Origin: Candidatus Woesearchaeota archaeon
Lineage (GTDB): Archaea > Nanobdellota > Nanobdellia > Pacearchaeales > GW2011-AR1
Reading direction: 5' to 3'
NCBI GenBank assembly: GCA_964362915.1
Contig: CAYIGH010000001.1
Coordinates: 24,056-88,055 of the forward strand
DNA: 64,000 nt
The translations under genes and the position numbers were made by a program. A model generated the notes under the pieces. That model had not been told where the DNA came from. It ran no database searches and was given only the letters and a program-made list of their open reading frames with translations. Within the stretch, counting starts at the first letter, position 1. Each line of letters opens with the position of its first letter. Below, one piece after another: positions 15,706-44,740 of this stretch.

Positions 15706-16344
15706 ATGAAAAGAGGACAGTTCTATCTTATTGCTGCTTTTGTAATTATTGTTATTATGACTGGGCTTGCTTATGTTTATATAAAAGTAGAAACGCCAGC
15801 TGAGAGTCTTAATATAAATGATTTGGCTGATGAAGTTCATTACGAGGCAAATAAAGTTGTAGATAATGGAGTTTTTAGCGGGCTAAATGAAGAGCAAATT
15901 TCTGATAACATAAAGAAATTAGCTGAATATTATATTGATAAATATTCTTACATTGACTTATTTATTGTATATGGTGATGAAAATAAAGTTTATATTATAG
16001 AGGTGGCTAAAGTTGTTTTATGCCATAATGGGGAAACTATCAGGGTTGATGAATCTGCACGCCAGAAACATTTGGATCACGGAGATATATTAGGGCCTTG
16101 TACAGGCAATGAAAATCCTGCTGAGTTTAAAGAAGAAAGGTGCGATCCAGAATTGATTAGATGCGAGGACGAATATCTTACCGAGAGGGCGACTAAAAAG
16201 TCTAGTGTTATACCAAGTGGAGGGATAATTATATTAAACTTAGATGATAAAAATATTGATCTTGAAATAAAAACAGGACAAGAAAATTTGTATGTTATAG
16301 CTGAAACACAAGAGGGAGAGGAGAAGAATTTTGTTATACGATAA
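15706..16344 (+). CDS. hypothetical membrane-anchored protein (N-terminal TM, Cys-containing ectodomain)
   Basis: 212 aa. N-terminus QFYLIAAFVIIVIMTGLAYVYI is hydrophobic. Confidence 0.45.
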   Translation: MKRGQFYLIAAFVIIVIMTGLAYVYIKVETPAESLNINDLADEVHYEANKVVDNGVFSGLNEEQISDNIKKLAEYYIDKYSYIDLFIVYGDENKVYIIEVAKVVLCHNGETIRVDESARQKHLDHGDILGPCTGNENPAEFKEERCDPELIRCEDEYLTERATKKSSVIPSGGIIILNLDDKNIDLEIKTGQENLYVIAETQEGEEKNFVIR

Positions 16345-16397: not shown

Positions 16398-16853
16398 ATG
16401 GATAAATACTTCAAGATAATTTCTACTTTGTGTTATGTAAAGAGTAACAATAAGATATTAATGCTTTATAGAAACAAAAAAGATTCTCTTTCTAATAAGA
16501 GATATTATAGGGGCCTAGGAGGAAAAGTTGAGCAAGGAGAAAATCCTATAGAGGGTATTAAAAGAGAAGTAAAGGAAGAAGCAGGTATAGATATTAATCC
16601 TATATGGAGAGGAATCGTAACTTTTTCAAATCCATCTGGAATGGATTGGGAAGCCCATGTGTTTATCGCTGAAGGATATACTGGAGAAATTATTAGTTCG
16701 ACTGAAGGAGATCTTCATTGGATAAGTGAATTGGAGATTCTAAGTCTAGATATGCCAGAAGCCGATAAGAAGCTTATCCCTCTGCTTTTTCAGGAAGAGA
16801 GATTTCATGCTCATGTAAAATATGGAAGTATAGCAGAAGACAAAAATATTTGA
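16398..16853 (+). CDS. NUDIX hydrolase
   Basis: Nudix box GGKVEQGENPIEGIKREVKEEAGI. Confidence 0.8.
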   Translation: MDKYFKIISTLCYVKSNNKILMLYRNKKDSLSNKRYYRGLGGKVEQGENPIEGIKREVKEEAGIDINPIWRGIVTFSNPSGMDWEAHVFIAEGYTGEIISSTEGDLHWISELEILSLDMPEADKKLIPLLFQEERFHAHVKYGSIAEDKNI

Positions 16854-16963
16854 GCAGTTTTTTAGTCTTCCGCTAATAGTCAAAGACAAATTCTGCTCAA
16901 TTTTCAAAGTCTTTGACTATAATAAGAATTTAGTTAGTTTAAAAGTTGATGTGATTTGATAAA

Positions 16964-17332
16964 TTAGCTTTTAGCCAAAGAGAAAACGGTTTTTAATGCT
17001 ACAATTATTGTTGCTGGAACGAATAATACAAGTAGTGCACCAAGGATTGAGGCCACTATACTGCCTATATTAATTCCCATTACTGCAGCACTTAGTACAA
17101 GTCCTTGAATACCTGCGAAGCTTACGATCACTAAAGAAACTGAGGCAAGAAGAAATGTTTGAACATCTTTTTCTGATACAAAAAAACCTACGACAACTCC
17201 CAGCAATGCTAAAATCCCTAAAATCATAGGATTGGTTTTTGCCCCGGCAAAAAAACCGATAAGAACAGCCAAGACGATTCCGAAGAGAAATGCCCAGGCA
17301 GCTATTAAATTCTCTCTGGCTCTAATTGGCAT
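16964..17332 (-). CDS. hypothetical small integral membrane protein (4 TM)
   Basis: 122 aa, almost entirely hydrophobic. Confidence 0.5.
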   Translation of the reverse strand: MPIRARENLIAAWAFLFGIVLAVLIGFFAGAKTNPMILGILALLGVVVGFFVSEKDVQTFLLASVSLVIVSFAGIQGLVLSAAVMGINIGSIVASILGALLVLFVPATIIVALKTVFSLAKS

Positions 17333-17455: not shown

Positions 17456-19390
17456 ATGAAAATTAGATTTAATGTTTTAATGTTTACATTATTAACGATA
17501 TTTGGTATATTTTTTGCAGGAATTGCTAGTGCAGCTTTAGAATTAAAGACTGTTACTGTGCCGACAACTGTTTCTCATAATCAAGGGGCTATTCCTATTG
17601 TATTTAGTTTGAATAATACTGGAGCATTACAAACTGGACTTGAATGGACTGGCACGCCTAATATTGGAAGCTGGAATCTCGCATCCTTGCCAACAACAAT
17701 AAATGCTGGAGCGCAAATTCAATTTACTGTTATATTGACTATTCCTAAAAATAGTGCAGGAACAATCCAAGCAAACTTAAATGTTGAGAGCAATGAGGGT
17801 GAATCTGATAGTTTAAACCAGCCACTGTCAATAATAATTACTAGAGAGGCCACATTGTCTATCACTAAAACACAAGAATTAACTAGTGAAAGAGACGGTA
17901 TAATCAGCGTAGCTAATACTGGAAATGTACAATTAAGTAATATAGAATTATCTTCTTCAGGTGATTTTACAGTTTCATTTTCCCAGAATAATATAAATCT
18001 ACTTCCTGGAAATTCTTTAAATGTAAATGTTATCAGAGGAAATATAACTGACTTGAAATTCGGTGCAAATAGTGTTACAATAATTGCAAAGGATTTGAAT
18101 GAGAATGTCTCTTCTAATAGTGTTAGTTTTTCTATTGGCAGCGGTTTCTGTAAATCAGGCGAGAAAGGAGAGTTAAATATAAATGATGTTAATATTGAAA
18201 GTGATGGGGAAGATGAAGATGTTTGGAAACCATTAGATACAATTACGATTGATGTAGAAATTGAAAATGATGGTGATGAGGAAATTCAAGATGTTATTGT
18301 TAAGTTGGGCTTGTTTGATTCTAATGGAAATGACTTTGCTGATGATTTAGATTTTGAAAATGAAGATGAGGAAAAGATAGATTTAGGAGATTTGGATGAT
18401 GGCGATGAGGAAACAGTCACATTCAAATTCACAATCCCTGCAGACTTTGATGAAAAGGGAGACTTTAAGCTGGCAATAAAGGCATATAGTGATGATGAAG
18501 GAGAAAATCAGCAATGCACTGACAGATCTTCTGATTTGAGCGATAATTTATTTGAAGATATAGAAATTGAAAGAGAAGATGACGAAGGGAAACTTATAGC
18601 ATTTGATAATATAAAGGCAGAACCTAGCGAAGTTCTATGCGGAGACAGCGTAAAAATAACTACAGACGTATTTAATCTAGGTGATGATGAACAAGATCAA
18701 GTCAAAGTTAATTTGATAAATAATAAACTTGGTATAGACCTTTCTAGAGAGATTAAAGAAGATTTAAGTGAAGGTGATAAGAAAGAAGTAAATTTCGAAT
18801 TTATAATTCCTAAGACATCAACTGACGGCAGTTATACTTTTGATCTTTCTGCAGAATATGATTATAGAAGAGGAACTTATAGAGAGAGCAGTGATGATAC
18901 GACACCTGTTATATTAAAAGTATTTGGATGCGGCGCTATTACTGATGGCAGAGATAAGCAAGTGTCTATTGCTGCTTCTTTGGAGTCTGAAGCAAAGGCA
19001 GGACAGGAATTGGTTGTGAAGACAGTAATAACAAATCTTGGCGCAGACCAGAGGGATTTTGCTGTAACAGCAAGCGGATATGAAAATTGGGCTAAGCTAG
19101 ATTCTATTTCAGATAGACTAATTAACTTAAAAAGTGGAGAGAGCAAGGAGGTAATTGTTAGATTGAATGTTAATTCTGATGCTGAAGGAGAAAAATCATT
19201 TATTATGGAAGCCAGATCAGGCGATAAATTGGAAACCAGAGAAATCGCAGTTAATATTGAGTCAGGGCAAAGGCCTGGGCTTGGAGGCCTTAATCTGGGT
19301 GGAAATAGTTTGGTGTGGATCATTGGAATAATAAACGTTATTTTAATAATTTTAATAATTGTTGTTGCTGCGAGGATTTCTAAGAGATAA
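17456..19390 (+). CDS. secreted acidic surface protein with CARDB-like domains and a C-terminal TM anchor
   Basis: Signal peptide (MKIRFNVLMFTLLTIFGIFFAGIASA). Asp/Glu-rich blocks and CARDB-like beta-sandwich segments. C-terminus is GGLNLGGNSLVWIIGIINVILIILIIVVAARISKR. Confidence 0.6.
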   Translation: MKIRFNVLMFTLLTIFGIFFAGIASAALELKTVTVPTTVSHNQGAIPIVFSLNNTGALQTGLEWTGTPNIGSWNLASLPTTINAGAQIQFTVILTIPKNSAGTIQANLNVESNEGESDSLNQPLSIIITREATLSITKTQELTSERDGIISVANTGNVQLSNIELSSSGDFTVSFSQNNINLLPGNSLNVNVIRGNITDLKFGANSVTIIAKDLNENVSSNSVSFSIGSGFCKSGEKGELNINDVNIESDGEDEDVWKPLDTITIDVEIENDGDEEIQDVIVKLGLFDSNGNDFADDLDFENEDEEKIDLGDLDDGDEETVTFKFTIPADFDEKGDFKLAIKAYSDDEGENQQCTDRSSDLSDNLFEDIEIEREDDEGKLIAFDNIKAEPSEVLCGDSVKITTDVFNLGDDEQDQVKVNLINNKLGIDLSREIKEDLSEGDKKEVNFEFIIPKTSTDGSYTFDLSAEYDYRRGTYRESSDDTTPVILKVFGCGAITDGRDKQVSIAASLESEAKAGQELVVKTVITNLGADQRDFAVTASGYENWAKLDSISDRLINLKSGESKEVIVRLNVNSDAEGEKSFIMEARSGDKLETREIAVNIESGQRPGLGGLNLGGNSLVWIIGIINVILIILIIVVAARISKR

Positions 19391-19442
19391 ATGAAATTTA
19401 AATATAATGAAATGATAGTTAAAAATATGGAAAGAGAAGAAA

Positions 19443-19757
19443 TTGCAGACCTTTTTGCGAAGGCATCAAGCTGGCTGGAAAGAGGCGCTTAGAATAGATG
19501 GGGCTAAGACTTTTAAAAGAAAAGCTCTTGGTCTTTGTGGAATGCAAACAGTTAGAACTCTTGATGAGATGACGGAACTATTACAAGAGACAGGAGTAGC
19601 ATCCTCTTTAGAGGAAGGAGAAAAAATAATGCAATCTCTTAAGGGGAAAGAAGTATCATATGGTTTGTGCAAAGTACTTTCTTTTGATGAAGTTGAAGAT
19701 TCATCAGGAAAAAAGGCATATAGAATATTTGCTTATACTTACAGTTCTTTAACCTGA
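19443..19757 (+). CDS. hypothetical protein (start uncertain; possibly frameshifted against an upstream ORF at 19391-19492)
   Basis: 104-aa ORF. An adjacent short ORF in another frame starts MKFKYNEMIVKNMEREEIADLFAKASSWLERGA. Confidence 0.25.
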   Translation: MQTFLRRHQAGWKEALRIDGAKTFKRKALGLCGMQTVRTLDEMTELLQETGVASSLEEGEKIMQSLKGKEVSYGLCKVLSFDEVEDSSGKKAYRIFAYTYSSLT

Positions 19758-19944
19758 TTCAACAATTCTTTACTAATCTTCTACTATATGATTTATTTTT
19801 ATAAACTCGTCATTAATGATAACTAATGAACCAAATAATCTATTCCTTATATCTATCATATAGAAGCTTAGTACCTGAAACTTTTAAATGTTTCTTTAAT
19901 TAAATAATCAATAACTTCTTAAATATTGGATATTAATTAACCTG

Positions 19945-20466
19945 ATGAAAAGGGAACAGGCAGTTTATTTATTTATTAGATATAGTATTTTAGTTGCTTT
20001 GGGATTTGGATTGGAATTTGTTTATAGAATTTTTACTCCGCTAACTATTTATCCTGTTTACTGGATTTTAAACAGTTTATATGGGGCTGTTTTAGTTGAT
20101 AATGACGCAATAGTTATAAAGGGAGTTTTTATTGAGCTAATACCTGCGTGTATAGCTGGTTCTGCATATTATTTATTATTAATATTAAATTTGTCAACAC
20201 CTATGGATATTGGGAAGAGATTAAAGAATATAGTTTATCTTATTTTTAGTTTTCTATTATTAAACATTTTAAGAATATTGGCTATGATCTGGATATTTTT
20301 TGCATTGTATAATTATTTTAATGTAACACACAGAATTGTATGGTATATTGGGAGCACAATAATGGTAGTTGTAATATGGTTTATTGGAGTTTATATATTT
20401 AATATAAAAGAGATTCCTATATACAGCGATATAAAAAATATTATAAAGGATATTAAAAAAAGATAA
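19945..20466 (+). CDS. archaeosortase/exosortase-family-like polytopic membrane protein
   Basis: 173 aa, 5-6 TM. Cys in TM context IPACIAGSAYY (ACxG-like) and a conserved-looking NILRI Arg motif, similar to exosortase/archaeosortase active-site motifs. Confidence 0.4.
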   Translation: MKREQAVYLFIRYSILVALGFGLEFVYRIFTPLTIYPVYWILNSLYGAVLVDNDAIVIKGVFIELIPACIAGSAYYLLLILNLSTPMDIGKRLKNIVYLIFSFLLLNILRILAMIWIFFALYNYFNVTHRIVWYIGSTIMVVVIWFIGVYIFNIKEIPIYSDIKNIIKDIKKR

Positions 20467-20467
20467 T

Positions 20468-21103
20468 ATGGGAATTATAAGTTCAGTTGTAGATTTTGTA
20501 TTGCATATGGATAAGTATTTTGATATTATTATTCAGAATTATGGTGTTTTTACTTATCTCATAATTTTTTTAGTAATTTTTTTTGAGACAGGATTGGTTA
20601 TAACTCCCTTTCTTCCGGGCGACTCTTTAATTTTTATTGCAGGCACTTTTGCAGCGCGAGGATCTTTGAATGTTTTGTTATTATTCTTCTTGCTTTCTGC
20701 TGCCGCGATAGTTGGTGACAGTCTTAATTATTGGATAGGGAATTATATTGGCGAAAGGATATTTACACATAATAGATTTGTAAAGAAAGAATACTTAGAC
20801 AGGACTAAGGAATTTTATAAAAAACATGGGGGGAAGACTATAATTTTAGCAAGATTTATCCCAATTATAAGAACATTTGCTCCGTTTGTTGCTGGCATAG
20901 GAAGAATGGATTATACTAGATTTCTCGGCTTTAATGTTTTTGGCGGAATGATTTGGGTAGGAATATTTGTCTTTGGTGGATATTATTTCGGGCAGCTGCC
21001 TTTTGTTCAGGAAAATTTAACATGGATTATCCTTTTCATTATATTCCTTTCTATAGTACCTGCTATTCTTAAATATTTCAGGAATAAAAAGCTAAAGAAT
21101 TAA
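20468..21103 (+). CDS. DedA/SNARE-associated (TVP38/TMEM64) family membrane protein
   Basis: FETGLVITPFLPGDSLIFIAGTF...GRMDYTRFLGFNVFGGMIWV matches DedA core motifs. Confidence 0.75.
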   Translation: MGIISSVVDFVLHMDKYFDIIIQNYGVFTYLIIFLVIFFETGLVITPFLPGDSLIFIAGTFAARGSLNVLLLFFLLSAAAIVGDSLNYWIGNYIGERIFTHNRFVKKEYLDRTKEFYKKHGGKTIILARFIPIIRTFAPFVAGIGRMDYTRFLGFNVFGGMIWVGIFVFGGYYFGQLPFVQENLTWIILFIIFLSIVPAILKYFRNKKLKN

Positions 21104-21831
21104 TTTTTATCTGCTTCTCTTCTTAGTTTTGCATCTAATATTGATTGAACTTCAAATTTCTCTATTGCCTCTAAAATTTCGCAGTTTGCTACGTTGATAA
21201 CATAACAGTTTTCTTTATCATGAACAATTTCTGTTTTATCACCTGCTTGCAAAACTATCACAGTGTCTTCTTCTCCATGTGGGCTAGTGTCACATGTTGC
21301 ATATATCACATTGGCTTCTTTTGCCAAATCTTCAAAGGGCGCTGCACCAACGACATTTAATTGATTATCTGCTAAAAAAGAAGCTAATGTTCCTATTCCT
21401 ACTCTTGTATATTCACATTGAGTTAAATCTTCTGGATTAACACTTAGATATATAAAATTTGAATTAAAAAATTCTATTCCATTATCAACTACTTTGCCTG
21501 TTAGTGGAATATTATTTTTTCTCGGGTCATTTCTTATATAGAGGTTATATTTTATTTGCGGAGTTATATAGTAATAATAATGAAAAACTGGAATTTCACC
21601 GAATTTTTCTTTTGTGAATGTTAGCCCTTCATATTCAAATGTGTTAGTTTTTGAAAAGAAATAGCTTGATAAAAAGAAGATTCCAATAAGTATCGCCAGA
21701 GTTCCTAGTATCCAATACAACTGGTGATATTTTTTTCTAGATTCTGTTTTTTTCTCAATGTTCTTTTCTATTAATATAGATTCTTCCAGCTTGGGAACTG
21801 CTTTCTCTTTTTTATTAGTCTTTTTTACCAT
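21100..21831 (-). CDS. hypothetical membrane-anchored protein
   Basis: 243 aa. Single TM after a basic N-terminus, extracytoplasmic domain with Cys. Confidence 0.4.
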   Translation of the reverse strand: MVKKTNKKEKAVPKLEESILIEKNIEKKTESRKKYHQLYWILGTLAILIGIFFLSSYFFSKTNTFEYEGLTFTKEKFGEIPVFHYYYYITPQIKYNLYIRNDPRKNNIPLTGKVVDNGIEFFNSNFIYLSVNPEDLTQCEYTRVGIGTLASFLADNQLNVVGAAPFEDLAKEANVIYATCDTSPHGEEDTVIVLQAGDKTEIVHDKENCYVINVANCEILEAIEKFEVQSILDAKLRREADKN

Positions 21832-21871: not shown

Positions 21872-22423
21872 TTAAGGATTAAATAATTTGTATAAAAATG
21901 CGTCAGCTGTAGTCATATCCCCCTCTATAAATACACAATTCTCTTCCTGAAAAACTCTTTTCTCCAATGAATGACTCCATATTATTAGATTGTCTGTACA
22001 ATTTTTTTCAGGCAGGTTTTCTTCGCATTTTTCATAACAAGCTTTTTGCACTCTGGAAACCAGCCCTTGAAGATTTAAAGCGATTTCTCTAAATATTCCC
22101 TCATTTGATGAAACTATATAGAGAGGTTTTCCCTGATATATTGCAGGAGTATTAGAAATATTTACAGCTATGCTTTCTACGTCATTATATGTACTTATTA
22201 AACTTATGCTTGAACCTTGGTATTCAAAATTGATTTTATCTGCTGGAGATTTATCTTTTTGCTTTTGCCGCCCATTATTATCTGTAGCTTGCCCAGGATT
22301 GGAAAAAAAAGCAAATCCTAATGTACTTAAGACTAAAATTGATAACATAAATATACTTAAAATAGTTGTTCTGATCTTTCTTTTTCTTTCTATTTCGCTT
22401 TGCGTTTCTATTCTTCTTATCAT
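21872..22423 (-). CDS. hypothetical membrane-anchored protein
   Basis: 183 aa with an N-terminal TM helix. Confidence 0.4.
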   Translation of the reverse strand: MIRRIETQSEIERKRKIRTTILSIFMLSILVLSTLGFAFFSNPGQATDNNGRQKQKDKSPADKINFEYQGSSISLISTYNDVESIAVNISNTPAIYQGKPLYIVSSNEGIFREIALNLQGLVSRVQKACYEKCEENLPEKNCTDNLIIWSHSLEKRVFQEENCVFIEGDMTTADAFLYKLFNP

Positions 22424-22505: not shown

Positions 22506-25238
22506 TTAAGCTGTTGTAGTCGTTAACTCTGCGCTTGTTGCTGAAGTACCTTTGTACTTCTTGCCAACATCTGTCATTACATTTGCTTGTGTTGTTAAGT
22601 ATTTAGCAGCGTTTGTTGTGTCACCAGCATTGTATCCTGCAACAAGGGTAGCAACTTTTCCTCCTGTTCTGGAGAAAGTTTCTATTAAGAATTGACCTGC
22701 ACCGATACCTGTCTTTGCAGTGAAATCAGCGCCGCATGTCCTTGTGGATACGCTCAGTAATTGAGCAGCTACTGTATTAACACAGCTTCCGCCAATAACA
22801 ACCAAGTTCTTGCCTGCGACAGAGGTTGCTTCCGCATCAGTTACAGAAACAGAGCCAAGTGAAGTAGCTCCTGAGCCCCCTCCTCCTGTGCTTGTAGTTG
22901 TAATCTCTGCAGTGTTTTCTGCTAGGTAAATATTGGCATATACCTGCTCATTTGGATAACTTATTGTTGCTTTGTACTGGTCAGAATCTCCTTGATCAAT
23001 AGTTGCAATTGTACCGAACAAGTCTGCTTCTTTAGTCATCTTGCTATTACTAGCAAGAGCAATAGCATCCCATGTTCCGTCAGCCTGCCATGTTCTTTTT
23101 ACATCGTCAACACCAATTCCGTCATTACTGTCTCCGCCACTCTCTAATGTAACAACAAGAGCCTGATATAGTGAATTGTCATCTTTTTCCTCAAAGACAA
23201 TAATTGCTGGTAGAAGCACATTAGCTCCTCCATCAGGATTTTTTAAGTATAGATTAGTTGCGTTTCTTGTATTATCTCCAGCACCTGTAATGTTAAATGT
23301 AAGCGCCCCTATAGTGCCTGAAACAGAATTTCTATTAGCAGTTGCTCCTAAAGTAGATAGGTTCAACTGAGTTGTTGTGCTACCGAATGTAATGTTAACT
23401 GCTATATTTGCCGCATTACCATCAAAATTTGCTGTTGGAGTAGTAAATGTTATATCGGTAAAACTATCTCCATCTGGAATCTTTATCGTAGTTAACGCAT
23501 TAGTGCCAACGTCTCCATCCCAGTCATTAAGCGAGATGTTAAGCAAGGGCTCGTAGAAAGCTAACTTTGCGCCGCCTTTTGTTTGTATTGTGGGGTACGC
23601 AACTGCAGCGCCTGTTCCAGAGCTATCAGGGTAATTTAATGTTACCCAATTATTAGCATCGGATGATGTTCCATTGTATTTAACATCGTAAACTTTTCCA
23701 CCTATACTGGCGGTTCCTACTCCATCTGATGTAACAGTAGTTTCAATAGTATCTCCAGAGAAGACATCTATAAAGGTTGCCTTATCTCCGCTAATACCTG
23801 CTGTGGTTGAATTTGTAATTCCACTTACTCTGATTAGCCTGCCATTCTCTTCGTTGCCAACAACGACATAATCGTCTTTGAATAGATTTTGTTTTTCAAG
23901 AACAGTTATATTATGCCCATCGCTGTCTCTTTGCAGTTCAACTTGACCTGGTGTAGTCCAGTTTTTAGCAAACTGAATTGAAGCAGTTTTGCCGTCCTTA
24001 TTTGTAAAGGTGACTTCCATTTTATCGTCCCCGTTATAACCCATCTTTATATCTTCTCTATTTGCTGTATCATCGTCCTTAATGGACAAGCCTGAAAAAT
24101 CAAGTTTAAAGGATCCGAATACAGGGTCTTTCATTGATGTTCCTGCAACGACAGCATCCTTATCACTGTTAGGCGCACGTATGCTAACTATTATTTTAGT
24201 AGCTGCTGTTGTTCCACCTGTAATGGTTGTTGATGTGCCGTCAACTACGGTGTCTTCTTCACCCATAGTTACCGAGCTTCCTTGTGTTGTTGATAACTTG
24301 ACTTTCTCTGCGCCTGCAATAACGCTTGCAGATAGCTTGAGATTTGTCTCGTCAGCATTTGTAATTGCTATTGTAACACCGTTTATTTTTTTAGAAGCGT
24401 TTTCACTTACTTCTTTTGTTTCTGACTTTCCTTCACTATCTGTAACTTTAACAGTTGCAGCAGTATCTGATGCAGAAACTAATTCAACAGTATATGTTTT
24501 ACCAGTGATTGTTACTTCTGCTGAAGGATCGTCGCTACTTAAAGCAACTTTTTCTGCAGTTTTTAACAAGACTAATTCTGTATCGCTTGTTGCAGAAGCG
24601 ATTGTAAACTTCTGTCCAAACATTGTTATATCCTGGCCCTCTGAATCAGCATGCGTTAAATTTACGGCTTTGCTGAATGTTAGAGATGCATTGTAGATAT
24701 AATTTGCTGTTGTTGTACTTGTAGTAATTAAAAACTGAGGGTCTAGATCGCTTGTTGGCTGTTTGCCAGCATAGGTTATCTGAGGATTGAACCCTAGCTC
24801 AATTGTTTGTGTATAACTCGAGTCTACATTTCCTGAAAAACTACCATCTTTTAAGACAGTTGGAAGATCAGTTTTAGTCACAACAGATTTTACTGTATTT
24901 AATGTGTCATTAATGAAGAGTTTTGTCCCTCCAGAAAACAATGGAGCCGCTTCTCCTGTTACTGAAGTAGATGTTCCTGTGCCTCCGCCTTTTGCTGTAG
25001 CTTCAGCTAACTTAGTAGATAAATAACTACTAATATCTGTTACAGCAACAAGGTCAGTATATGCGGCATTTGCGCCGCCATGAACGATGGCAACATCAGC
25101 TGCACCTCCAGCTACGAATGGTGCTGGAAAGTTTGCTGCGGCAGCCAAAGCTACTGTAGAACTTAACATTGCAGTACTAGCAAGAACTGAACCTATTTTT
25201 TTGAATGAAAATCTCATTTTTTTTAAACCTCCTTTCAT
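22506..25238 (-). CDS. S-layer-like secreted surface protein (Thr/Ser/Gly/Ala-rich)
   Basis: 910 aa. Signal peptide MRFSFKKIGSVLASTAMLSSTVALAAAA. Low-complexity T/S/G-rich beta-rich sequence with many NxT/S sequons. Confidence 0.55.
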   Translation of the reverse strand: MKGGLKKMRFSFKKIGSVLASTAMLSSTVALAAAANFPAPFVAGGAADVAIVHGGANAAYTDLVAVTDISSYLSTKLAEATAKGGGTGTSTSVTGEAAPLFSGGTKLFINDTLNTVKSVVTKTDLPTVLKDGSFSGNVDSSYTQTIELGFNPQITYAGKQPTSDLDPQFLITTSTTTANYIYNASLTFSKAVNLTHADSEGQDITMFGQKFTIASATSDTELVLLKTAEKVALSSDDPSAEVTITGKTYTVELVSASDTAATVKVTDSEGKSETKEVSENASKKINGVTIAITNADETNLKLSASVIAGAEKVKLSTTQGSSVTMGEEDTVVDGTSTTITGGTTAATKIIVSIRAPNSDKDAVVAGTSMKDPVFGSFKLDFSGLSIKDDDTANREDIKMGYNGDDKMEVTFTNKDGKTASIQFAKNWTTPGQVELQRDSDGHNITVLEKQNLFKDDYVVVGNEENGRLIRVSGITNSTTAGISGDKATFIDVFSGDTIETTVTSDGVGTASIGGKVYDVKYNGTSSDANNWVTLNYPDSSGTGAAVAYPTIQTKGGAKLAFYEPLLNISLNDWDGDVGTNALTTIKIPDGDSFTDITFTTPTANFDGNAANIAVNITFGSTTTQLNLSTLGATANRNSVSGTIGALTFNITGAGDNTRNATNLYLKNPDGGANVLLPAIIVFEEKDDNSLYQALVVTLESGGDSNDGIGVDDVKRTWQADGTWDAIALASNSKMTKEADLFGTIATIDQGDSDQYKATISYPNEQVYANIYLAENTAEITTTSTGGGGSGATSLGSVSVTDAEATSVAGKNLVVIGGSCVNTVAAQLLSVSTRTCGADFTAKTGIGAGQFLIETFSRTGGKVATLVAGYNAGDTTNAAKYLTTQANVMTDVGKKYKGTSATSAELTTTTA

Positions 25239-38806: not shown

Positions 38807-41800
38807 TTAATATCCCATAAATATCTTTCTTCTCATATGTACTTTTAAATAAATAACCACAATGACAGCAACTACAATCAATGATAAACTAATCCATATT
38901 ATGCCACTAAGTGCTCCTCTGTTCTCAGAAGGTATTTTTTCCTGCTCTCCTGCTTCAGAGCCACTATCTACCCCTTTTTCTCCGCTTTCTATTGGTGGTT
39001 GACTTAATTCTCCCTCTGATTCAGATGTTGTTGCATTCTCTTTCTTTGGTTTTGAAACACTGGCCCCTCCAGAGCCCCCACCACTACTACTTCCTCCAGA
39101 ACTTCCTCCTGAAGAAGTGGATTCTCTATATGTGGAAAACTCGCAGAATGGAATCTGCCATATGCAATTTGTCGAATCAATTAAAGTTGCTTCAGATGTT
39201 CTATCAACACAATTTGCTCCATTATTATCACAATGAAACAATTGATTACATGTTCCGCTAAATGGTATCTTTACTCTGCAGACCTCTGGATATAAGTTAT
39301 TTATTATCTTGTCTCTTGTCTCAGAAGTTAATCCTGCGTATGTTGAAGTATTAATAATTGAACCTGCCGTGCTAATTGTCCTAACCTTATCATTCAATCC
39401 TGTTTTAGTCAATGAGGCATTAATAAATTCAAAGTAATTACTACCATCGGTATTATTGAGCTTAATATTAATACGTCTTCCTTCTGTATAGTTAGTTTTC
39501 CTGCCAGCATTAGCTCCACATACTTGTCCTTGTATATGCTCATAAACGTTATTTTGATCAATATCATATGATACTGTCCAGCCAGATGGTGCCTTAATCC
39601 TAGTCACAAAACTGCAGAAACCGCATTTATTATTTAGGGTAGCAGTGACGAATGAACTACATTTGCTAATAGCGCATTTATTTTTGTCATCACAAGCTTT
39701 TAGCTTATAATAATAAGTCGTCCCATTAACTAGATTATAGCGCAACGAACGAACTCCGCCGTCATTGTAAATATCTGCTTTATGCCATAACTTATAATCT
39801 CTTACATTGGTGCTAAGCACTCCAACATCATTAATTGTTGCATTTAATGTAATACATCTTGAATCATTTCCGTAAAACTCAAGGCTCCCATTTGCAGGCT
39901 TATTGGTATCATACATAATTAAAGCAGAGTCTGGATATTCTTCTATCTTAACGCCTACAACTTGCGGCGTTTTAGTATCAGTATAATTCGCGGCATTTAC
40001 ACCTGTGCTAGAGCATACAGATAGAAAATCACAATCCCAATCAAAGCAATCTATATTGCCGTCGTTATCATTGTCTATATTATCAAAGCAATCCTCATAT
40101 TGCACATATCCCTTCCTTAATATGTCCTCAAACTTTGCTGCGTCTGCTCCATAGTCAAAACAGCCTGCAATTTCAAAGTCAACAGCTCCAGGTGTAGTAT
40201 AACCAGGGCCAGCTGTATCAGTTGGAAATGTAACATTGCCAGTTCCAGGATTCCCAATTGTTGCAGCATATACTCTCATATCTTTTGTTGAATCATATAA
40301 TGTAGGGAATCTATTCAAGTCTGCCTTTTGTACAGCTATCATAGGCCCGCCAATTTCAGAACACATTAGCTTCTTCCATACATTTAATTTGATATCACTA
40401 GCTGCCCACTGGGAATTTTCGCATGTATAAGCATTAAATGTTTCTACTGCTTTTTCTTTAGTAGCATTCCATTCAGAGGCATATCTAAATCTAAATTCGT
40501 ACCCTTTAGCAGAAGAATTATGGTTTAATTCACATCCTCCGCTAGTTAAACCATCTGTATCCAAATAAACAAAGAATATTACTGTATCATTTCCGTTGCC
40601 AATTCTTTCAATTCCGTAACTCGTTAATTTTTCTTTGTTGCATAAAGAGGCATTAGTAAAGTCCAACATATTAGCTCCAAATCCAAATCCATCTCCCATA
40701 TCTTTCATTCCAATACCACAAATATCTACACTTCTTTGACTTATCCCTGCCTCAGGACAATTATCTACTGCTATTGGCACAGGAGCCCCTGTTTCTATAC
40801 TATTAAATGATTCAACTGTTCCAGCTGTATTGCACCATCCAGTAACCCATTTGCATCCACTTCCACATGCTCCCTGAGTTGTAGCATTAAAGCAGGTTGG
40901 CTCACATCCATAAGAAGTAGCATTACAATATAGATTTGCGTTACATAATGTGGCATTATTTACTAAAGTTGTATTGCTCCAGCATTGGTCCATGACATTA
41001 GTACAGTAATTTCCATTAGAATTCCACCAACATCCATTAGTAGCATTACATCCTACAGCCACAGATGTATAACTCCAGCATTCTTTGCTCCAATCAACTT
41101 CGCATCTTGGGTTAGATTCTGGGAACCATCCGCAACTGATATTTATAATAGTCTTATTCGTGCAGAATGTTTGATTACCATTATATTTCCAGCATTCAGC
41201 CCCGGATGCTCCTCCAACTCCACCTCCTCCCACAACGGAGCCTCCAGAAAATCCTCCTCCTTTAGGATCACACCATCCAGGATTATTCCACTTACATCCT
41301 GATATTGCTGCGCAATTTGTTTGGTTATTAGAACTTGTTGCATTATAGCAAGTATTTGATTGCTGTTCTTCACACCAGCCATTTTCTGCCTTCCATAAAC
41401 ATCCTGAAGTAGTTGTACAGCTAGTTGAAGAAGTTATATTAAAGCATGCTGGCTCACATGTTCCGCCTCCTCCTCCATAATCTCTCCAATTGCAGCTAAC
41501 TTGAGTAACACCATTACAACTAGCTTTAGTTGTTTGGCTCCAGCATCTGTCAAAATTATTTGCACACCATGCGCTGTTAATTCCTCCAAATGTTTCATTT
41601 CTCCACCAACACCCGTTATTTTCACAATTTGATTGAGCATTATAATTCCAACAACTAGTGCTCCAGTTTACTTCACAATGGGGTTGTGACCATGTATCAA
41701 CTCTCCAACTGCATCCAGCAGTAGTGCTACATGAGGAATTTTCATATTTCTGCCAACAACTCTTTGGCTTGAAATCATTATGGTCACACCATCCTCCATC

Positions 41801-44740
41801 TGTTTTACACCATTCAGTTCCTTTTCCAAATCCATCACACCATGTGTCATTTGTCCAGCCACAATCAGTAGTGCTATAACATTGACTTTGATTCAAATTA
41901 AAGCACTTTTCTCCTATACTCCAGTCTCTTTCACACCAACCGCTTCCTGTTCCATTGTTCCATTCACAATTAGAACTTTTATTAGCATAGAACCTAAAAC
42001 TAACATAATAAATATCATTTGAGCCTCCTCCGCCAACCATATATGTATTGTTAGTAAAGTTAATTGTTTGTCTCGTATAATCTGCTGTAAAGTTTCCACT
42101 GCCTAGAATAGTCCCGCTTTTATTTGTCATATTTACGCTTCCGCTTATCCATCCTGTTCCCAAATTACCTAACTGGAATGTCTTGCTTTGATTTATATTG
42201 TTTGCAGACAATCTTGCAGATGATATATTTAACGTTTCATTAATAACAGTAGTATCTCCTAAACATTCTACTTCAGAATTGTCATATCTCCAACAAGAAC
42301 TTCCTTTAAAATCACACCATCCTTTTGGATTCCATGTATCATTTACCCATTCACAACTATTAGTTTCACATTGAGATTTAGTTGTCCAGCCAAAACAATC
42401 TCCTTCTACAAATCCGCACCATGTATCTGAATAACAACTTGGATCGCCACAATCTACTAGTGCATTATTATTGTTGTCTATACCATCCCAGCATATTTCA
42501 ACGTCCTCTCCAATATTTTGCACACAGCTCCCATCATTATCAGTTCCCTGCCATTTACAGCTTCCAGTAGAATTCAACGCGCTTCTCCCTTCATTAGCAC
42601 ACTTATCTCTTGTCTTGCATCTGTCACATGCGTCAAGGCATGTTTTTTCTCCTTTATCTGCGCAATATCCACCTGTTAAGGTGCTATTCTCTATAATCCA
42701 TTTACATCCTCCACCATTTGAATTTGCTTTGCTCTCTGAACAGAAGCATGCTGGAGTCAAACAATTTCCTGCAGAACTTCTTGAGGCATTATTCTTAGAA
42801 TCTCCAAGAAATGTACAATCTCCACATACTGAATTACAATCACCAGCCAAACCTTTTTTCCATTGTTCTTTTGCTTTGCAATATCCTATTCTATTTGGAG
42901 CACTAGTATCTGCTTCAAATTCACAATATCCTAATTTGCTTCCTATACAAGCTGATTTAGCATTTGTTGCATTAACTAAATTACCGTTACCATCTTTTAT
43001 TTCGCATGCAAAGCAAGCTTTATCACAATTTTCTTCATCATCAAATTTGTATTCGCATCTCCCTGTAGGAACAGAAACACTTCCCTCACAATAATTCTCT
43101 ATAATCCACTTTCCTCCAGCAGCCTCACAATTCCTTTGATTTTCAATCTTTACAATATTCTGTGTACTATTCCCAAAAACATCAGTTACTTTGAATTCGC
43201 ATTTGTTTGTTGAATTATTCCATTTACAAGGCATGTACCAAGGGTCTCCTGCAATTTTCTCGCAATTTGAGCTTGTTTCTGCATCTTCACATGCCTTCTC
43301 GCCATTTGGAGTCTGATCCAATTGATCAAAACAGCTCCTTGACTGCCTGTTCTCCGCACAAGTTCCATTCTGCCAGCTGCAACAAGTGCTTAAAGAAGCG
43401 ACATTGTTGCATAAATCAGATTCATTTATTTGATAACAAAATATACCCTTTGCATTAATTGCAGTTCCATTCACCTCATTTGTATTTTTGCATAAACTGC
43501 TAGTATAATTACACCCTATTACGCTATTGCACTTTGTAGAATTTGTATCAAAAATGTAACATCCTGGATTCCATTCATTTAAAATGCTACCATTGATATT
43601 CACAAAATCGCCGCTTCCAAAAGTCGGAGTTGTGCAATTTCCTCCTTTAGTTGAATCCTTCCAATCATTCGCCTGCCACCAACAATAAAATGTATCATAA
43701 CATGCTTTTTCTGTGGTTACATTAGCACAGCTTGTAGAAGAAACCTCCTTATAGCACCATCCATTTGTCGTATTTCCAGTTGGATTACCACTCCATTTAC
43801 ATGTAATACCATAAGAGTTTTGCTCGCATTTAGACTGATTTCCTAGTTTAAAAGAGTCCCAATTCCAGCAATTAACCTCTTCGCATGATCCTGTAGTATT
43901 ATAAGATTGCCATAGACAGTTTTTTTTGTCCTTACAACTAGATTCTGTATTCATATCATAGCAAGAATCTGTAACGCACAAATTATTGATACTCTGCCAT
44001 TTACAAGATTCTCCTAGAGTATTATTTACGCAAGCTGTTTGATTAGTATAATCGAAACTCGAACAGCCTTTTTGTTGACAAGATCCCCATTTCCATTCAC
44101 AATTTATCCCTTGAGCAGATTCACATGCTGTTTTATTCGAATATAATGTACTATCCCAACAATTATTTTCTCTACAATAACTTCCAGAAGCACCCCATGT
44201 ACAATTAATTCCTCTCCAATCTAGCCCTGAGTTACAAGCTGATTGTGACGTATAAATATTACAGCCTTTTTCAATACATTGTCCCCATCCGCATCCTGTT
44301 GTATTCTTGCATGCTGCTTCAGTAGCAATACCCCAACACCCTACATTCAGGCCACCTGTAACTTGATAGCATTGCCCGCTCCAACTACACGATTTGTTAA
44401 AGTAATTATTCTCACATTGAGTTTGATTAGTAGCTGAGAAAGCCCAACAACTTGCAGTTGTACACCAAGAACTAGCTGTTCCATTTGTCCATGTACAATT
44501 TTTCCCTGCAATGGTTGTTGTCGTACATGAAGACTGATTAGCCAAACTCCAGCAATTTAATTCTTCACACCAGCTTCCCCAAGTATCATTTCTCCACAAA
44601 CATCCATTTGAAAGCGTGCAAGTGGATGAAGAAGTATAAGTCCAGCAACTTGCAGCGATAACAAAACTCAAAGATAAAATTATACCAACTGTTATAAAAG
44701 ATAGGATTGTAAAAAATCTAGACTCTTTTAACACCATCAA
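38807..44740 (-). CDS. giant (1977 aa) Cys/Trp-rich extracellular protein with N-terminal signal/TM and C-terminal TM anchor
   Basis: Recurring C-x-W / NCW / CxWxxxxW motifs and very dense NxS/T sequons. Gly/Ser linker near the C-terminus followed by TM IIWISLSLIVVAVIVVIYL and a basic tail. Confidence 0.65.
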   Translation of the reverse strand: MMVLKESRFFTILSFITVGIILSLSFVIAASCWTYTSSSTCTLSNGCLWRNDTWGSWCEELNCWSLANQSSCTTTTIAGKNCTWTNGTASSWCTTASCWAFSATNQTQCENNYFNKSCSWSGQCYQVTGGLNVGCWGIATEAACKNTTGCGWGQCIEKGCNIYTSQSACNSGLDWRGINCTWGASGSYCRENNCWDSTLYSNKTACESAQGINCEWKWGSCQQKGCSSFDYTNQTACVNNTLGESCKWQSINNLCVTDSCYDMNTESSCKDKKNCLWQSYNTTGSCEEVNCWNWDSFKLGNQSKCEQNSYGITCKWSGNPTGNTTNGWCYKEVSSTSCANVTTEKACYDTFYCWWQANDWKDSTKGGNCTTPTFGSGDFVNINGSILNEWNPGCYIFDTNSTKCNSVIGCNYTSSLCKNTNEVNGTAINAKGIFCYQINESDLCNNVASLSTCCSWQNGTCAENRQSRSCFDQLDQTPNGEKACEDAETSSNCEKIAGDPWYMPCKWNNSTNKCEFKVTDVFGNSTQNIVKIENQRNCEAAGGKWIIENYCEGSVSVPTGRCEYKFDDEENCDKACFACEIKDGNGNLVNATNAKSACIGSKLGYCEFEADTSAPNRIGYCKAKEQWKKGLAGDCNSVCGDCTFLGDSKNNASRSSAGNCLTPACFCSESKANSNGGGCKWIIENSTLTGGYCADKGEKTCLDACDRCKTRDKCANEGRSALNSTGSCKWQGTDNDGSCVQNIGEDVEICWDGIDNNNNALVDCGDPSCYSDTWCGFVEGDCFGWTTKSQCETNSCEWVNDTWNPKGWCDFKGSSCWRYDNSEVECLGDTTVINETLNISSARLSANNINQSKTFQLGNLGTGWISGSVNMTNKSGTILGSGNFTADYTRQTINFTNNTYMVGGGGSNDIYYVSFRFYANKSSNCEWNNGTGSGWCERDWSIGEKCFNLNQSQCYSTTDCGWTNDTWCDGFGKGTEWCKTDGGWCDHNDFKPKSCWQKYENSSCSTTAGCSWRVDTWSQPHCEVNWSTSCWNYNAQSNCENNGCWWRNETFGGINSAWCANNFDRCWSQTTKASCNGVTQVSCNWRDYGGGGGTCEPACFNITSSTSCTTTSGCLWKAENGWCEEQQSNTCYNATSSNNQTNCAAISGCKWNNPGWCDPKGGGFSGGSVVGGGGVGGASGAECWKYNGNQTFCTNKTIINISCGWFPESNPRCEVDWSKECWSYTSVAVGCNATNGCWWNSNGNYCTNVMDQCWSNTTLVNNATLCNANLYCNATSYGCEPTCFNATTQGACGSGCKWVTGWCNTAGTVESFNSIETGAPVPIAVDNCPEAGISQRSVDICGIGMKDMGDGFGFGANMLDFTNASLCNKEKLTSYGIERIGNGNDTVIFFVYLDTDGLTSGGCELNHNSSAKGYEFRFRYASEWNATKEKAVETFNAYTCENSQWAASDIKLNVWKKLMCSEIGGPMIAVQKADLNRFPTLYDSTKDMRVYAATIGNPGTGNVTFPTDTAGPGYTTPGAVDFEIAGCFDYGADAAKFEDILRKGYVQYEDCFDNIDNDNDGNIDCFDWDCDFLSVCSSTGVNAANYTDTKTPQVVGVKIEEYPDSALIMYDTNKPANGSLEFYGNDSRCITLNATINDVGVLSTNVRDYKLWHKADIYNDGGVRSLRYNLVNGTTYYYKLKACDDKNKCAISKCSSFVTATLNNKCGFCSFVTRIKAPSGWTVSYDIDQNNVYEHIQGQVCGANAGRKTNYTEGRRINIKLNNTDGSNYFEFINASLTKTGLNDKVRTISTAGSIINTSTYAGLTSETRDKIINNLYPEVCRVKIPFSGTCNQLFHCDNNGANCVDRTSEATLIDSTNCIWQIPFCEFSTYRESTSSGGSSGGSSSGGGSGGASVSKPKKENATTSESEGELSQPPIESGEKGVDSGSEAGEQEKIPSENRGALSGIIWISLSLIVVAVIVVIYLKVHMRRKIFMGY

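Follow-up and report, generated by a model that had tools for sequence, protein, structure and literature searches.

A pacearchaeosortase and its adjacent PACE-CTERM surface protein in a conserved envelope gene cluster of Pacearchaeota-type archaea

Archaeosortase ArtA of Haloferax cleaves the PGF-CTERM signal of the S-layer glycoprotein, after which a lipid is attached, and in the model of this reaction a cysteine thioester is resolved by the amine of archaetidylethanolamine (PMC7157517, PMC6098224). ArtA residues Cys173, Arg214 and Arg253 are critical for activity (PMC9263693), and ArtA genomes can hold between 1 and 52 dispersed substrates (PMC6098224). According to reviews, almost nothing is known of the envelopes of DPANN (Diapherotrites, Parvarchaeota, Aenigmarchaeota, Nanoarchaeota and Nanohaloarchaeota) archaea (PMC5744192, PMC6098224). 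Here we analyse a 64,000-nucleotide stretch of DNA from a Candidatus Woesearchaeota archaeon (GenBank assembly GCA_964362915.1, contig CAYIGH010000001.1, positions 24,056 to 88,055), hereafter the window, which is AT-rich (about 29–39% guanine plus cytosine, with about 32% for the window as a whole) and encodes side by side an acidic surface protein of 644 amino acids (aa) and a 173-aa membrane protein of the archaeosortase type. Our preferred reading, which we consider likely, is a pacearchaeosortase system of Pacearchaeota-type DPANN archaea in which a minimal 173-aa enzyme acts on a single dedicated substrate by ArtA-like processing.

The closest described counterparts of the pair are two curated NCBIfam models, NF033505 for the enzyme and NF033506 for the substrate. 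Both window proteins match these models at full length and far above the cut-offs, and the gene order and the lineage of the relatives agree. We found no difference at the family level; what is particular to the window is a 554-base-pair (bp) gap between the two genes, against a median of 67 bp in relatives, and a doubtful S-layer label on the larger protein. An original prediction, made from the letters of this DNA alone, had proposed an uncharacterised sortase/substrate pairing. Profile comparison confirms that the pairing is real, and because NCBIfam already catalogues both partners the system is a known family pair and not a new one; "uncharacterised" thus holds for experiments and fails for databases, where both models are curated and NCBI names relatives "pacearchaeosortase". 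A literature search found no paper using the names "pacearchaeosortase" or "PACE-CTERM". A reading confined to sequence can recover a real sortase/substrate system, and a check against NCBIfam settles its identity at once. The remaining novelty lies in a conserved envelope gene cluster around the pair, a probable misnaming of the substrate and a recurrent DedA neighbour, and the system is among the few clues to envelope building in uncultivated Pacearchaeota.

The sortase gene and its link to the upstream gene

The two open reading frames lie where they were originally placed, and the pair comprises the following features.

17456–19390, + strand: PACE-CTERM protein, 644 aa, an acidic surface protein with multiple Ig-like domains (NF033506 and Pfam matches; position upstream of the sortase)
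17456–17533, + strand: signal-peptide-like N-terminus, residues 1–26, MKIRFNVLMFTLLTIFGIFFAGIASA (read from the sequence)
19292–19387, + strand: candidate C-terminal sorting signal, residues 613–644, NLGGNSLVWIIGIINVILIILIIVVAARISKR (tail profile from 63 tails)
19391–19944, no strand: long spacer of 554 bp with unconserved small open reading frames (gap statistics)
19945–20466, + strand: pacearchaeosortase, 173 aa (NF033505 match, invariant residues, AlphaFold2 model)

An NCBIfam scan supports placing the 173-aa protein in the exosortase/archaeosortase superfamily and assigns it to the pacearchaeosortases: residues 7–171 align with positions 2–167 of the 167-position NF033505 model at 193.9 bits (cut-off 80), in agreement with the exosortase-like character first noticed from the sequence. 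The best secondary matches are to the similarly small models of heimdallarchaeosortase (NF045528, 199 positions; residues 65–154, 36.3 bits, E 5.5e-9) and ArtE (TIGR04124, 153 positions; 18.7 bits), but these scores fall far under the respective cut-offs of 130 and 95, and both families belong to another lineage and have another cognate signal. The superfamily signature TIGR04178 gives a match slightly below its cut-off over residues 66–148 (E 2.8e-4). The same scan gave no match to ArtA (TIGR04125) at E ≤ 1, and a Pfam scan gave no match at E ≤ 1, leaving NCBIfam as the only route to identification. Among 30 sortase relatives with 47–61% identity to the query, 29 match TIGR04178 (E ≤ 0.01, best 8.1e-9), 28 match heimdallarchaeosortase and 24 match ArtE, with weak matches to the ArtA model in just seven. 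Homologues of the sortase form 1,441 clusters in the protein database, several of which carry the NCBI name "pacearchaeosortase", and relatives are encoded in 455 species-level genomes. The record titles of the 80 loci that we fetched all denote metagenome-assembled genomes of Pacearchaeota, Nanoarchaeota or "Woesearchaeota".

Alignment of the 30 relatives also bears out the catalytic motifs that had been read from the sequence, an ACxG-like cysteine context and an N..R motif. The only cysteine of the sortase, Cys69 (codon 20149–20151), lies in the context IPACIAG (A-C-x-A-G), and the N..R motif is N107-I-L-R110 (Arg110 codon 20272–20274). Cys69, Asn107, Arg110 and His129 (codon 20329–20331) are invariant in the alignment and all fall within the TIGR04178 match region; further invariant residues include R12, Y13, P32, R92, W133 and S137, among others. 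An AlphaFold2 model of the protein (mean predicted local distance difference test score, pLDDT, 88; predicted template modelling score, pTM, 0.76) places helices at residues 3–20, 23–46, 67–84, 89–120, 122–151 and 158–172, five of them long and the last C-terminal, with a β-hairpin at residues 49–64. The protein is basic (isoelectric point 9.5), and its most basic segments are the loop at residues ~88–95 and the C-terminal tail. Because the positive-inside rule puts these two segments inside, Cys69, Arg110 and His129 would be located towards the outer face. The modelled protein combines a sortase-like set of cysteine, arginine and a third polar residue (C69, R110 and H129) with the five long helices of a polytopic membrane protein.

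Comparison with ArtA reveals a shared superfamily signature region, a tripartite substrate signal of motif, transmembrane helix and basic end, and a major surface protein as substrate (PMC6098224). The 41 residues between Cys69 and Arg110 equal the distance between ArtA Cys173 and Arg214, an equivalence based on equal spacing alone (PMC9263693), whereas the third residue in the window sortase is the invariant His129. The enzyme is small, at 173 aa against a 912-bp artA gene in Haloferax volcanii (PMC7157517). Its presumptive substrate is single and adjacent in place of the dispersed ArtA substrates, and carries the motif GxNxxLWxIGxxN where ArtA substrates have PGF. With no ArtA match for the enzyme and no PGF motif in the tail of the window substrate, the pair falls outside the ArtA/PGF-CTERM group.

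The two genes are linked across related genomes. Of 80 genome loci seeded with the sortase, 74 carry a homologue of the 644-aa protein immediately upstream in the same orientation; the figure is 64 of 66 for loci that have at least 2.2 kilobases (kb) of upstream sequence. A reverse test seeded with the substrate yielded 32 metagenome loci, and in all 21 that have at least 1.5 kb of downstream sequence the sortase is present, directly downstream on the same strand in 19 and nearby on the opposite strand in two. The unusually long spacer of the window contains open reading frames of 33 aa (at 19392) and 104 aa (19443–19757, TTG start), the latter with no homologue among the 80 genome loci and no DNA match. 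The spacer has no Rfam match and its open reading frames have no Pfam or NCBIfam match; an insertion specific to the lineage, or the decay of a gene, may account for it.

The C-terminal signal and its distribution

Against NF033506, the 627-position profile named "PACE-CTERM-PROT, putative S-layer protein", the 644-aa protein scores 573.7 bits (cut-off 110), with positions 5–627 aligned. Pfam recognises Ig-like domains of the CARDB, NPCBM_assoc and Wzt_C types, and the protein is strongly acidic, with an isoelectric point of 4.21 and 113 aspartate and glutamate residues against 53 lysine and arginine residues. Twenty-five substrate homologues share an N-terminal consensus MKxK...L...SA with an invariant A26; the cleavage site of the signal peptide is putative. 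At the other end, the protein closes with ...GLGGLNLGGNSLVWIIGIINVILIILIIVVAARISKR, a Gly-rich stretch followed by a transmembrane helix and a basic tail; the tripartite C-terminus with a motif of its own, and without PGF, had been recognised correctly from the outset. More closely, a Gly/Asn-rich lead-in precedes invariant W621 and N627 at the start of the helix, and the protein ends in the basic RISKR.

We built a profile from 63 such tails, whose consensus is x-[LF]-G-[GDN]-N-x-[LYF]-[IL]-W-[IV]-I-G-[IA]-[IV]-N-V-[IV]-L-I-I-L-I-I-V-V-A-V-[RK]-x-[SA]-[RK]-[RK]-COOH, with the Trp, the Asn at +6 and the Leu at +9 invariant. Mean column identity is 68% over the 32 tail columns compared to 33% over the whole substrate protein, making the tail its best-conserved part. 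Conservation so far above the rest of a fast-evolving protein is the pattern that would be expected of a recognition signal and not of a plain anchor. The tail of the window protein scores 50.3–55.3 bits against the tail hidden Markov model.

A search with this profile of 1.84 billion representative proteins (E ≤ 1e-3) returned 619 representative matches, with the motif at the extreme C-terminus throughout the best 150 of the 619, and full-length matches measure 520–725 aa. A word-indexed protein search with a 48-aa tail profile gave just 17 short gene fragments, which are uninformative on other architectures. After removal of the tail, the body of the protein was homologous to that of the window substrate in 130 of the 133 tail matches longer than 100 aa. 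No second tail-bearing open reading frame occurs in the window or in the 80 loci (none above 25 bits), and the expectation that several surface proteins would share the sorting motif was not borne out, the 644-aa protein alone carrying it in the window. By these searches the tail motif appears essentially confined to one protein family. Because the tail is found almost only on this family, the system looks like one enzyme with one substrate, the 644-aa protein being its predicted sole substrate; an arrangement of this kind would also explain why the NCBIfam model describes a full-length family and not a C-terminal domain.

In three loci (L050, L057 and L059) the open reading frame directly upstream of the sortase encodes a shorter substrate paralogue whose tail differs (one example has ...MPWALGVAIIFLLALIIIFAFVRRPRARHAPRSS... 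and a long extension), and L050 additionally holds a canonical substrate farther upstream. Such short paralogues may represent a second substrate that has diverged or a copy in decay.

Proposed processing of the surface protein and its alternatives

The likely ArtA-like route builds on the observed family membership, invariant residues, signal conservation, adjacency and exclusivity. The 644-aa protein would be exported by Sec through its N-terminal signal peptide. Its C-terminal helix would then retain it temporarily in the membrane, leaving RISKR on the cytoplasmic side. The sortase would then recognise the conserved segment G-[GDN]-N-x-[LYF]-[IL]-W-[IV]-I-G-x-x-N at the outer end of the helix. 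By analogy with ArtA, Cys69 acting with Arg110 and His129 would remove the helix through a thioester intermediate, after which an amine nucleophile would take over the new C-terminus; the likeliest nucleophile is a membrane lipid that carries ethanolamine. The expected product would be a lipid-anchored acidic Ig-domain surface protein.

Several points weigh against ArtA-like processing by a dedicated enzyme. We infer export, cleavage and its site, and the identity of the acceptor, and we found no experimental work on any member of the family in the literature. At 21.1 bits the window sortase stays slightly below the TIGR04178 cut-off of 23, and an equivalent of ArtA Arg253 was not identified in it. 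The family has no solved structure: a sequence search of the PDB with the sortase gave nothing, and the best Foldseek match in the PDB has an E-value of 0.21. Synteny within one archaeal lineage is partly inherited, and the loci are not independent observations. Finally, exclusivity of the tail was assessed in the window, the 80 loci and the representative proteins, and the genome may encode a rare second substrate at another place.

In one alternative no lipid anchor is made: the enzyme would act as a protease that releases the 644-aa protein from its helix into the envelope or the medium, or would transfer the protein to an acceptor other than a lipid, for instance a glycan or the S-layer protein encoded nearby. 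This alternative is favoured by the dependence on host lipids that is generally assumed for DPANN archaea and by the anchorless S-layer protein encoded in the same conserved cluster. Proteolysis by ArtA is also the sole activity directly shown for the family, and the way in which the lipid is linked is still described by a model (PMC6098224, PMC7157517). Yet lipid modification of ArtA substrates depends on both ArtA and the motif (PMC5744192, PMC6098224), and the gene most often found downstream of the sortase encodes a DedA lipid transporter, immediately after it on the same strand in 45 of 76 loci. We consider release or a non-lipid acceptor improbable. The same conserved tail and gene adjacency would be compatible with a stable membrane complex, in which the C-terminal helix is a permanent anchor conserved through helix–helix packing and its sortase-like partner has no catalytic role, serving for instance as an assembly factor or as a chaperone that binds the helix. 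A permanent anchor is very improbable, however, in view of the family-typical Cys/Arg/His set, which is invariant among relatives of only 47–61% identity and includes the single cysteine of the protein, and of the terminal basic cluster and outer-edge motif, which match the tripartite pattern of sorting signals (PMC6098224).

The remaining alternative, that the sortase has several substrates in the genome, would include a giant protein that the original prediction had described as ending in the same way.

38807–44740, − strand: giant cysteine-rich protein, 1977 aa (transmembrane helix and basic cluster at the C-terminus)

Its C-terminus does consist of a Gly/Ser-rich linker, a transmembrane helix and a basic cluster (…SGIIWISLSLIVVAVIVVIYLKVHMRRKIFMGY), with a Trp near the helix start, and ends in KVHMRRKIFMGY, so that the likeness stands at the level of generic architecture; ArtA genomes, with their 1–52 possible substrates, offer a precedent for multiple clients (PMC6098224). 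The likeness fails at the conserved motif. Against the tail profile the giant protein scores −6.4 bits, compared to 55.3 for the 644-aa tail and −7 to +2 for other window proteins that end in a transmembrane helix; 14 residues follow its helix instead of the 5–6 of the sorting signal, and the invariant G and N are missing. With no other tail-matching open reading frame in the window, no second one in the 80 loci, and the tail restricted to one family across the 1.84 billion representatives, a multi-substrate system is scarcely credible, and a single dedicated substrate is the reading that we retain.

The giant protein itself, rejected as a second sortase substrate for its negative score and lack of the conserved motif, resembles a type I membrane anchor in general shape and lacks the sorting signal. 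It contains 155 cysteines, 71 N-glycosylation sequons (N-x-S/T) and repeated C...W modules. A Pfam scan assigned it no family, its match to the acidic double-disulfide repeat NF033662 is sub-threshold (33 bits, cut-off 41), and its exact sequence, with the TTG start as called, is absent from a 15-billion-protein collection.

The surrounding envelope gene cluster

The pair sits within a conserved block of seven genes, whose other five members in the window are listed here; gene counts refer to loci with enough sequence at the relevant position.

16964–17332, − strand: 122-aa protein with multiple transmembrane helices, no Pfam or NCBIfam family, divergent from the substrate gene (present in 53 of 59 loci)
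20468–21103, + strand: DedA-family membrane protein, 211 aa, starting one base past the sortase stop (NF008102, Pfam VTT_dom)
21100–21831, − strand: 243-aa protein with an N-terminal transmembrane anchor, no Pfam or NCBIfam family (present in 59 of 60 loci)
21872–22423, − strand: 183-aa protein with an N-terminal transmembrane anchor, no Pfam or NCBIfam family (present in 57 of 60 loci)
22506–25238, − strand: 910-aa secreted protein without a transmembrane anchor (present in 45 of 50 loci)

The order is the 122-aa membrane protein (−), the substrate (+), the sortase (+), often DedA (+), and the 243-aa (−), 183-aa (−) and 910-aa (−) proteins. All seven genes occur in this order in 26 loci, and 13 more have the identical order minus DedA. 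The 122-aa protein is the best-conserved member, with a median identity of 65% and values up to 89%. Observations that may be useful for later study are a signal limited to a single family, a cluster that joins a Methanococcus-type S-layer gene to three unnamed membrane proteins, and two DedA subfamilies that occupy one slot.

The DedA protein of the window matches NF008102 at 252.6 bits (cut-off 236). The downstream slot is filled by a PRK10847-type DedA, the type found in the window, in 14 loci and by a UptA-like DedA in 34, and the two subfamilies are deeply diverged, at ~27% identity to each other. That two such distant subfamilies recur at one position may point to a functional connection with lipid transport. 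DedA is a possible lipid-transport partner of the sortase pair. Bacterial DedA proteins translocate undecaprenyl phosphate (PMC11474028) or phosphatidylethanolamine (PMC10193950) across the membrane.

Identification of the 910-aa protein bears on the name of the substrate. Full-length homologues with 50–64% identity pass the Pfam S_layer_C family (PF05124; 56.3, 41.6, 27.3 and 26.2 bits, cut-off 23.9), and an AlphaFold2 model of the window protein (pLDDT 79) matches the anchoring domain of the Methanococcus voltae S-layer protein (9fsa, match probability 0.98), described in PMC11410804, as well as an S-layer domain of Methanosarcina acetivorans (3u2g, match probability 0.96). Because its homologues pass S_layer_C and its model matches two archaeal S-layer pieces, the 910-aa protein is the better lattice candidate and is probably a lattice-forming S-layer protein of the Methanococcus type. 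The presence of such a protein in the cluster casts doubt on the name "putative S-layer protein" that NCBIfam gives to the 644-aa family, and these observations suggest that it merits caution.

A broader picture, which we offer tentatively and think unlikely, would have the 644-aa protein as a sortase-processed, lipid-anchored acidic pillar, and not as the lattice protein; it would tether the anchorless S-layer protein at 22506–25238 to the membrane. DedA would bring an ethanolamine lipid or a polyprenyl phosphate to the outer leaflet to serve as acceptor. If true, the seven-gene cluster would be a self-contained envelope-assembly module in archaea that are probably unable to make their own lipids. 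The SlaA/SlaB system of Sulfolobales provides a functional analogy only, in which an anchorless lattice protein and a C-terminally transmembrane-anchored protein are encoded close by (PMC6098224 for SlaB); SlaB retains its helix, Sulfolobales are without archaeosortases (PMC6098224), and we claim no sequence relationship.

Two minor observations concern the neighbouring genes. The 243-aa and 183-aa proteins each contain four cysteines, and in both FEY[EQ]G follows shortly after the transmembrane helix; paralogy between them is unsupported, as BLASTP detects none. Upstream of the cluster lie genes for a 212-aa membrane-anchored protein (15706–16344, +), which adjoins the cluster in four of the 80 loci, and a 151-aa protein (16398–16853, +), which does so in one; as neither gene is conserved, the left edge of the conserved block falls at about position 16960.

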